Shown here piece after piece: positions 12,001-13,586 of a stretch of 13,586 nucleotides of DNA. Position 1 is the stretch's first letter, and the number at the start of each line of letters is the position of its first letter. Made by a program: the position numbers. The stretch lies in the IMG/VR virus record IMGVR_UViG_2897352509_000015, one strand, 5' to 3'. The stretch is from a virus. Taxonomy: Duplodnaviria > Heunggongvirae > Uroviricota > Caudoviricetes.

Positions 12001-13586
12001 ACCTTTTTCTTTGATAATCACATTACAGCGATAGCGTGGTGTGCCATCGGATTTTAGTCGTTTCTCTATGTTATAGTACGCCATTACACGACCTCGTTAT
12101 TTCGGGTTCCCATAAAACGTGGGAACCTGTGCGGGAACCTAACGCGAGAAAAATAGCCTGAAATGTTCAAAAATGCACGATAATCATGAAGCACAAAAAA
12201 TTAATCAAACCAGCGTGATGCCTGAAAAAACTGGTGTTTACTGGAATTCTCGGTTTAGCGTTGCACCAATGCTCGACTGGACGGACAGACATTGCCGCTA
12301 TTTCTTGCGTCTGCTTTCCCGCAATACGCTGCTGTATACCGAAATGGTGACCACAGGGGCGATTATTCACGGTAAAGGTGATTACCTGGCGTACAGTGAA
12401 GAAGAACATCCGGTAGCGTTGCAACTCGGCGGTAGCGATCCGGCGGCGCTGGCGCAGTGTGCGAAGCTGGCAGAAGCGCGCGGATATGATGAGATCAACC
12501 TGAATGTCGGCTGCCCGTCTGACCGGGTGCAGAACGGCATGTTTGGTGCGTGTCTGATGGGTAATGCGCAGCTGGTTGCCGACTGCGTGAAAGCGATGCG
12601 CGATGTGGTGTCGATTCCGGTGACGGTGAAAACGCGTATTGGCATCGATGATCAGGACAGCTATGAATTTCTCTGCAATTTCATCAACACCGTTTCCGGC
12701 AAAGGCGAGTGTGAGATGTTCATCATCCACGCACGTAAAGCCTGGCTTTCGGGGTTAAGCCCGAAAGAAAACCGTGAAATCCCGCCGCTCGATTATCCGC
12801 GTGTGTATCAACTGAAGCGTGACTTTCCGCATCTGACGATGTCGATTAACGGTGGCATCAAGTCGCTGGAAGAAGCTAAAGCGCATTTGCAACATATGGA
12901 TGGCGTGATGGTCGGGCGCGAGGCGTATCAGAATCCGGGTATTCTGGCGGCGGTAGACCGGGAGATCTTTGGTTCCTCGTATACCGATGCCGATCCGGTG
13001 GCGGTAGTGCGTGCCATGTATCCGTACATTGAGCGTGAACTCAGCCAGGGGACGTATCTCGGGCATATTACCCGGCATATGCTGGGCTTGTTCCAGGGTA
13101 TTCCTGGCGCGCGGCAGTGGCGGCGTTATTTAAGTGAAAATGCCCATAAAGCGGGTGCAGACATTAATGTGCTGGAACACGCGCTCAAACTGGTGGCGGA
13201 TAAGCGTTAACTTTTCACCAAAAAGTAGTCAAATTCACCACGCCCTGCGCAAATTCGCGGGGCGTTTTGCTGTTAAATCAATAGATTATTTTTGGCATGA
13301 TTCTTGTAATGCCAGCAAGAGATTTCATATTTGGGAGAGCATCATGCTGGAACTACTTTTTGTGATTGGCTTTTTTGTCATGCTGATGATCACCGGCGTT
13401 TCGTTGCTGGGCATTATCGCCGCGCTGGTTGTGGCGACGGCCATTATGTTCCTCGGCGGTATGCTGGCATTGATGATTAAGTTGCTGCCGTGGTTACTCC
13501 TGGCGATTACGGTGGTGTGGGTTATTAAGGCGATTAAAGCACCAAAAGTGCCTAAATATCAGCGTTATGACCGCTGGCGTTACTAA

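Follow-up and report, generated by a model that had tools for sequence, protein, structure and literature searches.

The window, by which we mean the whole stretch of 13,586 nucleotides analysed here, contains a remnant of a lambdoid prophage inserted at the start of the tRNA-modification gene dusA (Table 1). This remnant of about 10.8 kb keeps a fragment of the J protein (tail tip), Lom, a tail fibre, three NleG-family genes, DinI, an integrase and an excisionase, next to truncated early genes; most phage genes have been lost. The host flanks are formed by a DUF2713-family gene on the left and by dusA and pspG on the right. At the nucleotide level the integrase, which lies 88 nt from the dusA ATG (12173), is about 96% identical to those of the phages mEp460, SKA5 and phi1720a-02, and homologues with 64–100% identity lie directly upstream of dusA in five other species. 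The PrtN-like excisionase sits across the phage attachment site (attP) from the integrase and is of the RdfN type, which is required for the excision of a dusA-specific element (PMC8409611). The whole window, with the same remnant, recurs at 98.7% identity in O157:H7 strains including TW14359, and intact 42-kb relatives occupy the same dusA site. Beside the left junction, the open reading frame homologous to mEp460 gp23 has no Pfam or NCBIfam match and now lies 3' of the displaced host-type dusA promoter region. A search of the whole window against Rfam returned no RNA family.

Table 1. Features of the window in order of position, with the support for each
Feature	Position	Strand	Support or remark
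DUF2713-family gene, host flank, cut by the window edge	1–957	+	Pfam PF10897, E=1e-140
Terminator-like hairpin after the DUF2713 gene	995–1024	+	consensus scan
Extended -10-like block TGGTATAGT in the displaced K-12-type upstream region	1226–1234	+	92 nt before ATG
Displaced dusA 5' fragment: 35 host-type codons, 5 element codons (RMYRF), stop	1318–1440	+	translation
Left copy of the 27-bp core	1395–1421		crossover octamer ATGCTCGA at 1414–1421
Integrated element, ~10.8-kb remnant of a mEp460/phi1720a-02-like lambdoid prophage	1422–12268		ORFs, Pfam
GGGAGCC and GGGAACC repeats, putative integrase arm-type sites	1465–1482	+	element arm by the left junction
Phage ORF, mEp460 gp23 homologue	1566–2102	+	phrog_4350, E=2e-103; position as mEp460 gp23
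PrtN-like excisionase (RdfN-type recombination directionality factor)	2520–2828	-	PF11112, E=4e-23; phrog_1300 excisionase
dusA-specific tyrosine integrase, divergent from dusA	10987–12084	-	PF00589, E=1e-20
Extended -10-like block TGTTATAGT	12069–12077	+	antisense in integrase codons 3–6; predicted transcription start near 12084
Three GGGAACC repeats (one inverted, two direct), putative integrase arm-type sites	12105–12139		between block and dusA ATG
Element-type codons 1–26 of functional dusA	12173–12249	+	91–97% identity to free-phage attP
Complete dusA, 345 aa	12173–13210	+	PF01207, E=2e-104; TIGR00742, 578 bits
Right copy of the 27-bp core	12250–12276		crossover octamer ATGCTCGA at 12269–12276
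pspG, host flank	13344–13586	+	sequence; annotated pspG in matching genomes

A repeat search followed by alignment identified a direct repeat of about 117 nt with 83% identity, located at 1315–1431 and 12170–12286; counted from the start codons, the copies span 1318–1434 and 12173–12289. Within it the first 26 dusA codons are present in two forms (1318–1394 and 12173–12249), which both open with ATGCACG. They differ at 16 nucleotides within the first 77 nt (79% identity), which leads to eight amino acid changes, and two further codons differ synonymously. Read from the left to the right copy, the translated changes are G3D, S5H, M7A, A15V, D21G, H23Y, S25N and G26S. The variable codons are followed by a perfectly conserved 27-bp core, the longest identical run between the two copies. 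The initial annotation had already described two copies with eight differing residues, which alignment and translation bear out; its last five residue labels were one too low, and the changes fall among the first 26 residues rather than the first 25, with identity beginning at codon 27. The right copy runs on as a complete DusA followed by pspG. The left copy comprises 35 DusA codons, then RMYRF and a stop, and is annotated in RefSeq as a partial tRNA-dihydrouridine synthase pseudogene in O157:H7 TW14359.

Which of the two copies belongs to the host? We rebuilt the empty site in silico as left flank, core and dusA body in direct succession. Of 5426 complete E. coli genomes, 3611 carry this sequence without interruption, K-12 derivatives among them, and the best match, in strain 203740, reaches 99.9%; the left copy therefore represents the pre-insertion sequence of this lineage. 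The empty-site genomes annotate a DUF2713 family protein beside dusA. The integrase–dusA junction was found in 739 genomes. On the phage side, ten genome records (nine phages, with mEp460 represented twice) align with the window over a segment comprising DinI, the integrase and a dusA look-alike. The match to mEp460 ends at 12276, the end of the core, and those to the other records end within a few bases of it; past the core, the sequences of mEp460 and SKA5 resume as window position 1422 onward. The free phages mEp460, SKA5 and phi1720a-02 carry the integrase, the dusA look-alike and the octamer ATGCTCGA as their attP, which is thus composed of the right arm of the window, the core, and the element arm of the left junction. 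The copy at 12173 is therefore element DNA, and the copy at 1318 was displaced by the insertion. The proposal that everything upstream of the shared dusA codons comes from the element therefore holds, as between the integrase and 12276 the free-phage attP runs collinear with the window. A close comparison is offered by mEp460 (NC_019716), whose attP is collinear with both junctions and whose gene order of DinI, integrase, gp23, gp24, excisionase and exonuclease is that of the window. It differs in being a complete free phage, in a look-alike that deviates at 5 of 26 residues, and in a core with three phage-specific bases.

A direct repeat is symmetric, and this symmetry is all that would speak for the reverse assignment, in which the copy at 12173 is ancestral and the one at 1318 belongs to the element, or for a local duplication unrelated to integration. 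We give these possibilities practically no credence. Free-phage attP has the 12173-type sequence beside the integrase, element-free genomes join the 1318-type sequence to dusA, and the 12173-type sequence accompanies the integrase into a different Escherichia species (locus L008) as well as into hosts whose DusA lacks the N-terminal extension (short type). An ancestral 12173 copy, named in the initial annotation as the finding that would overturn its reading, is excluded by the empty-site genomes and the free-phage attP.

How far the element reaches into the gene can be gauged from the core. The attP cores of mEp460 and SKA5 differ from the host core at three bases, and the octamer ATGCTCGA is the only part of the core common to these attP sites and the bacterial site attB. 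Two other lysogens, L008 (Escherichia sp.) and E. coli MS20657 with its intact 42-kb prophage, retain phage-specific bases at the right junction as far as the octamer (12269–12276). The element-derived part of the fusion gene therefore extends to about codon 32, not 26, and the earlier statement of an element origin upstream of codon 26 was correct as far as it went while understating the extent. At the three core positions that distinguish the free phages, both junctions of this window carry host-like bases; the crossover point of this lineage is inferred from relatives, and the host-like bases may derive either from a phage variant or from later conversion between the repeats. A 7-base crossover core has been reported for phi1720a-02 (PMC6328086), in agreement with the octamer. 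In our own comparison, GCACCAATGCTCGACTGGA of the window matches 16 of 19 positions of the attB motif of C. rodentium printed in that paper; the comparison covers this motif only, and the semi-conserved 21-bp motif of the dusA-associated integrase (DAI) family, situated in the conserved region of dusA, is itself presented as a logo figure. Free phages with a joined attP exist (mEp460 and SKA5), and excision has been demonstrated for phi1720a-02 (PMC6328086).

We consider it very probable that the 12173 segment belongs to the attachment site of a prophage of the mEp460/phi1720a-02 family, where it forms the arm next to the integrase, and that it repairs dusA with roughly native-type expression. 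The prophage entered dusA by means of its dusA-specific tyrosine integrase, and recombination takes place within the octamer (12269–12276 and 1414–1421). The phage arm serves as a ready replacement that offers a start codon, 26 variable codons and a further six to nine codons identical or nearly identical to those of the host, and joins in frame to host codon ~33 onward to yield the full-length 345-residue DusA. The original start has been stranded 10.8 kb away as a stub of 40 codons. Transcription would presumably begin from the block TGTTATAGT (12069–12077), which lies antisense within the first integrase codons and appears to mimic a native block, and would produce a leader of about 90 nt with three GGGAACC repeats that are likely to be integrase arm sites. 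The net effect would be a repaired dusA with roughly native-type expression and no new function.

The replacement of the dusA 5' end by an element is already known for this integrase family and for this phage family. Farrugia 2015 (PMC4482086) described the integrase family, the exchange of the 5' end with displacement of the original one, and putative promoters that follow integration, and a 2026 paper on DusA treats the replacement as established (PMC13136901). The window shares several features with these DAI islands, namely a tyrosine recombinase adjoining the 5' end of dusA, a 5' end replaced by the element, the original 5' end as the far, outer boundary, and, following Durand 2021, a PrtN-like RdfN. 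In both cases imperfect direct repeats flank the island, and for DAI islands putative -10 and -35 elements were found to be present after integration (PMC4482086). The DAI examples differ in that the exchange takes in the first β-strand of the TIM barrel as well, whereas in the window this strand lies in the identical core and only the extension changes. The E. coli cases are listed in that work rather than dissected.

Two further systems come close. For the Stx2 phage phi1720a-02 (KF030445), Balasubramanian 2019 described an in-frame PhidusA' ORF (PMC6328086). Its integrase and dusA look-alike are the same as in the window (95.9–96.9% nucleotide identity), and its integrase also adjoins the junction. 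It is, however, an inducible 47-kb Stx phage in Citrobacter rodentium, while the window comes from E. coli and its 10.8-kb remnant lacks stx. That paper leaves aside the promoter, what kind of sequence the N-terminal extension is, and where the K-12-type start came from. Durand 2021 characterized IMEVchUSA3, an SGI1-like, dusA-specific integrative mobilisable element that provides dusA with a new promoter and with an N-terminus of unchanged length, whose identity to DusA of E. coli K-12 is 61% over 35 residues (PMC8409611). In contrast to the lambdoid prophage of the window it is a plasmid-mobilised Vibrio island with unrelated cargo. A translational lacZ fusion in E. coli K-12 showed that it retains dusA expression at a lower level (PMC8409611); dusA expression in the window, in comparison, is deduced from sequence. 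The SXT integrative conjugative element in prfC, as it is cited in PMC8409611, differs in target gene, integrase family and element type.

What does the exchange mean for the enzyme? The 345-residue DusA exceeds the cut-offs of TIGR00742 (578 bits against 397, over residues 27–342) and of NF008774 (559 bits against 269), and matches the DusA structure 3b0v from T. thermophilus with E=4e-88. In a second structure of the T. thermophilus enzyme (3b0p) the alignment begins at its own residue 4, which corresponds to residue 26 in E. coli. All eight changes are located within a 26-residue N-terminal extension, outside the conserved TIM-barrel enzyme, whose first β-strand, FSVAPM, belongs to the core identical between the copies. 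The extension itself is dispensed with in 1043 complete E. coli genomes, where zur lies directly upstream of a 331-residue DusA that opens with MPAESHTVYPAY-RFSIAPMLD. Three N-terminal types thus coexist at high frequency within E. coli.

The extension is likely translated from its first codon, M1. A start at the second ATG (M16, 12218) would turn the first 15 codons into a leader and leave only four of the eight substitutions in the protein. This would be in line with the native short-type DusA, which has merely 12–14 residues before the RFS motif, and neither dusA ATG is preceded by a recognisable Shine-Dalgarno or ribosome-binding site. We nevertheless consider a start at M16 improbable. 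M1 together with an open frame of exactly 26 codons is kept in all eight long-type lineages examined, that is, those with the extension, and M16 is missing from four of them (L067, L026, L049 and L064). RefSeq also annotates the 345-residue form.

Upstream of the start, strict two-hexamer σ70 scans of 11900–12400 and 950–1600 found no promoter on the + strand before either dusA start. A relaxed scan was needed to reveal the TGn-type extended -10 motif of the block TGTTATAGT, with five of six hexamer positions matched, and this extended -10 match is the whole basis of the promoter assignment. The block TGGTATAGT of the displaced copy is homologous to it in position and sequence, and an extended -10-like block is found 102–105 nt before the ATG in every integrase-bearing relative, in the form TGTTATAAT in L066 and L067. 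The element block also resembles the native block TGCTATAGTAGCGCC, which is near-invariant: in about 70 Enterobacteriaceae species with a short N-terminus, T(A/G)TGCTATAGTAGCGCCCC occurs 73–82 nt before the RFS codon. We infer that this is the native dusA promoter, and predict TGTTATAGT to be its element-borne counterpart. The latter stays a prediction, since the coding constraint on the integrase (M-A-Y-Y-N-I) alone could explain the conservation of the block in integrase-bearing elements. For the displaced start, the hairpin behind the DUF2713 gene implies that it had its own promoter downstream of this hairpin. A literature search for a mapped dusA transcription start returned nothing usable.

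The two arrangements differ in spacing. The element block lies about 100 nt further from the core than the native one, and the block positions give a leader that exceeds the inferred native one of the short type by about 60 nt. Three GGGAACC repeats fall within the leader and a further two in the opposite arm (1465–1482). The window as a whole has six copies against 1.28 expected, a count reached by no shuffle, and these repeats are plausibly integrase arm sites.

It is from these features that an influence of the element on dusA could arise. The initial annotation had suggested that the island may control the expression of a host enzyme, and in such a scenario promoter and leader would change expression or regulation, for example through binding of integrase or excisionase to the GGGAACC repeats or through divergent transcription of the integrase, while the altered N-terminus might alter the enzyme. 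Three putative arm sites do lie between the promoter-like block and the ATG, the block overlaps the integrase start, the leader is lengthened by some 60 nt, and IMEVchUSA3 significantly lowered dusA expression in E. coli K-12 (PMC8409611). Still, we regard such control as rather unlikely. The likeness of the promoter-like block to the native one speaks for restoration instead of new regulation. The location of all eight substitutions outside the conserved DusA core likewise favours restoration over control, and three N-terminal types that are all frequent in E. coli speak against a strong functional effect. These points argue for a repair of dusA with little functional consequence, and 'repair' seems a better reading than 'control'. 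Of the initial proposal, the fusion gene stands, with its upstream region, start and first 26–32 codons derived from the element; the control by the island was probably overstated.

For annotation this has a direct use. The 345-residue DusA of these strains is a phage–host fusion, and the short pseudogene 10.8 kb away is its displaced start. A candidate promoter that travels with the element, hidden antisense in the integrase codons, furthermore offers a handle on how insertions into gene starts spare the host. The following reading of the K-12-type start may be new.

The left copy, which we call host-type, is ancestral only to the present insertion and is itself element-type in layout. The K-12-type start is found in about two thirds of E. 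coli and is absent from other Escherichia species. All four non-coli Escherichia loci without an adjacent integrase (E. albertii, E. whittamii and two further species clusters) have the short N-terminus, as do nearly all other Enterobacteriaceae sampled. The long type occurs beside an integrase homologue in L008 (100% identity), L066 and L067 (83%), L026 (70%) and L049 (64%), and without an adjacent integrase in L020, L060 and L064. Two of these integrase-less loci, L020 and L064, are scars that retain remnants of the first integrase codons, and a comparison of L020 (Kosakonia pseudosacchari) with its close relative K. quasisacchari shows homology breaking at the attachment core. The same holds within E. 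coli, where genomes of the K-12 type and of the ancestral short type diverge at the attachment core and a 1.7-kb segment with the DUF2713 gene and the long-type start replaces 133 bp.

These observations lead us to favour, with some reserve, the view that the K-12-type start, meaning the extension, the upstream layout of about 160 nt and probably the promoter, is the fossil of an earlier element that targeted dusA. The distance from the promoter-like block to the RFS codon is 164 nt in the K-12 type compared to 174–179 nt in the integrase-bearing elements and the L064 scar. In a global, collinear alignment the 100 nt upstream of the K-12-type ATG align to the element arm weakly but significantly (z=3.8; 0 of 1000 shuffles); when aligned locally with the element, the K-12-type upstream region gives a match of no more than 20 nt, whose significance is marginal (23 of 500 shuffles). 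The K-12-type extension is identical at 17–18 of 26 residues to two element lineages, which share only 10–12 of 26 with each other. We give the promoter-like block less weight in this argument, because it also occurs in the native short-type promoter region and on its own is no proof of an element origin.

A history of this kind needs at least two deletions, which would have removed the integrase and the older left junction. The relationship could also be read in reverse, with a phage lineage having captured the K-12-type, long-type start from a host. This direction is disfavoured because the integrase lineages, at five loci in other genera, share the 26-codon layout, and the sampled congeners are short-type.

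If the fossil origin is true, the promoter and N-terminus of a core gene have repeatedly been overwritten by mobile DNA, and the locus is one of serial start replacement. The textbook N-terminus of K-12 DusA would then be derived from a phage or island, and K-12-based reference annotations and DusA constructs would include a non-native extension of 26 residues.

Two other candidate marks of such a past were considered and set aside. The DUF2713 gene accompanies only the K-12-type arrangement, where it separates zur from dusA; genomes in which these two genes adjoin lack it. No tie to mobile DNA emerged that would mark it as cargo of an older element: homologues were missing from both the 50,697 phage records and the 80 species loci. 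Additional DNA between zur and dusA is no general mark of decayed elements either, since many short-type species likewise have the two genes separated by about 2 kb. A literature search on yjbM together with dusA returned only lists of integration sites.

Insertions into the short-type dusA, which would be the first step of such a fossil history, are visible today. The junction predicted for such an event, between a short-type start and the element arm, is present in 20 complete genomes with at least 80% of the query covered; among the 12 matches listed, seven are 100% identical and five show 97.5–99.6% identity. In these genomes the insertion has turned a DusA of 331 residues into one of 345.

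In the free phage, a 40-codon dusA' ORF is followed by gp23 and gp24, all of them lying 3' of the element's promoter-like block. In the integrated state, gp23 and gp24 are instead preceded by the displaced promoter region of the host dusA, and no terminator is predicted between that region and the two genes. Integration is a reciprocal swap of predicted promoters between phage ORFs and dusA. The host counterpart of the block, T(A/G)TGCTATAGTAGCGCCCC, consists of an extended -10-like motif with a GC-rich stretch directly after it. Across about 70 species of Enterobacteriaceae this sequence hardly varies, located 73–82 nt 5' of the RFS codon of dusA, and it is probably the native dusA promoter. 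We found no published report of this block upstream of dusA.

The heptamer GGGAACC occurs six times in the whole window against an expectation of 1.28, and four exact copies together with one GGGAGCC cluster on both sides of the attachment core, three of the clustered repeats falling in the dusA leader. These clustered repeats are likely arm-type sites of the integrase. The right-junction core is host-like at three positions in the window and in O157:H7 strains, while the same positions are phage-like in the attP of free phages (L003, L004) and in two other lysogens, L008 and L089. The host-like version could represent a phage variant or, alternatively, the product of gene conversion between the two direct repeats of the dusA start.

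Without an inserted element, E. coli presents two arrangements of this locus: zur directly adjoins a 331-aa dusA in 1043 genomes, and a DUF2713 gene lies between zur and a 345-aa dusA, the K-12 type, in 3611. Because both part at the attachment core, their comparison suggests that the K-12 type is the scar of an older insertion.

Coordinates of the features discussed (L002, K-12-type empty locus; L005, short-type E. coli locus; L009-L087, dusA loci of other species; L089, intact prophage of E. coli MS20657)
Feature	Coordinates	Remark
Promoter-like block	window 1223-1240; L005 2408-2428; L009-L087	
gp23, gp24 phage ORFs	within window 1318-2472	phrog_4350, phrog_2741
GGGAACC clusters	window 12105-12139 and 1465-1482	dusA leader: 12105-12139
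Right-junction core	window 12250-12268	
Empty arrangements compared	L005 2300-2520; L002 316-2006	L002 part = window 1-1394
NleG-family genes	window 8513-10516	DUF1076
Tail-fibre repeats	window 7580-7900	repeat family D1
Methyltransferase, 3'-5' exonuclease, DUF2303 genes	window 3490-3996 and 2838-3176 region	
AB5 binding subunit and ADP-ribosyltransferase genes	L089 14561-15735	

The remnant itself has lost its head, lysis, regulatory and most tail genes and keeps three tandem genes for NleG-family type III effectors, whose survival amid this loss is consistent with the retention of useful cargo. Comparison with the intact MS20657 prophage documents decay of the early region, where the remnant has a broken methyltransferase and truncated forms of the 3'-5' exonuclease and DUF2303 genes. 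The tail-fibre gene carries collagen-like Gly-X-Y repeats; a long antisense ORF across them is an artefact of repeat composition. Downstream of its Q antiterminator, the intact same-site relative encodes a subtilase-family AB5 toxin binding subunit and a scabin-related ADP-ribosyltransferase.
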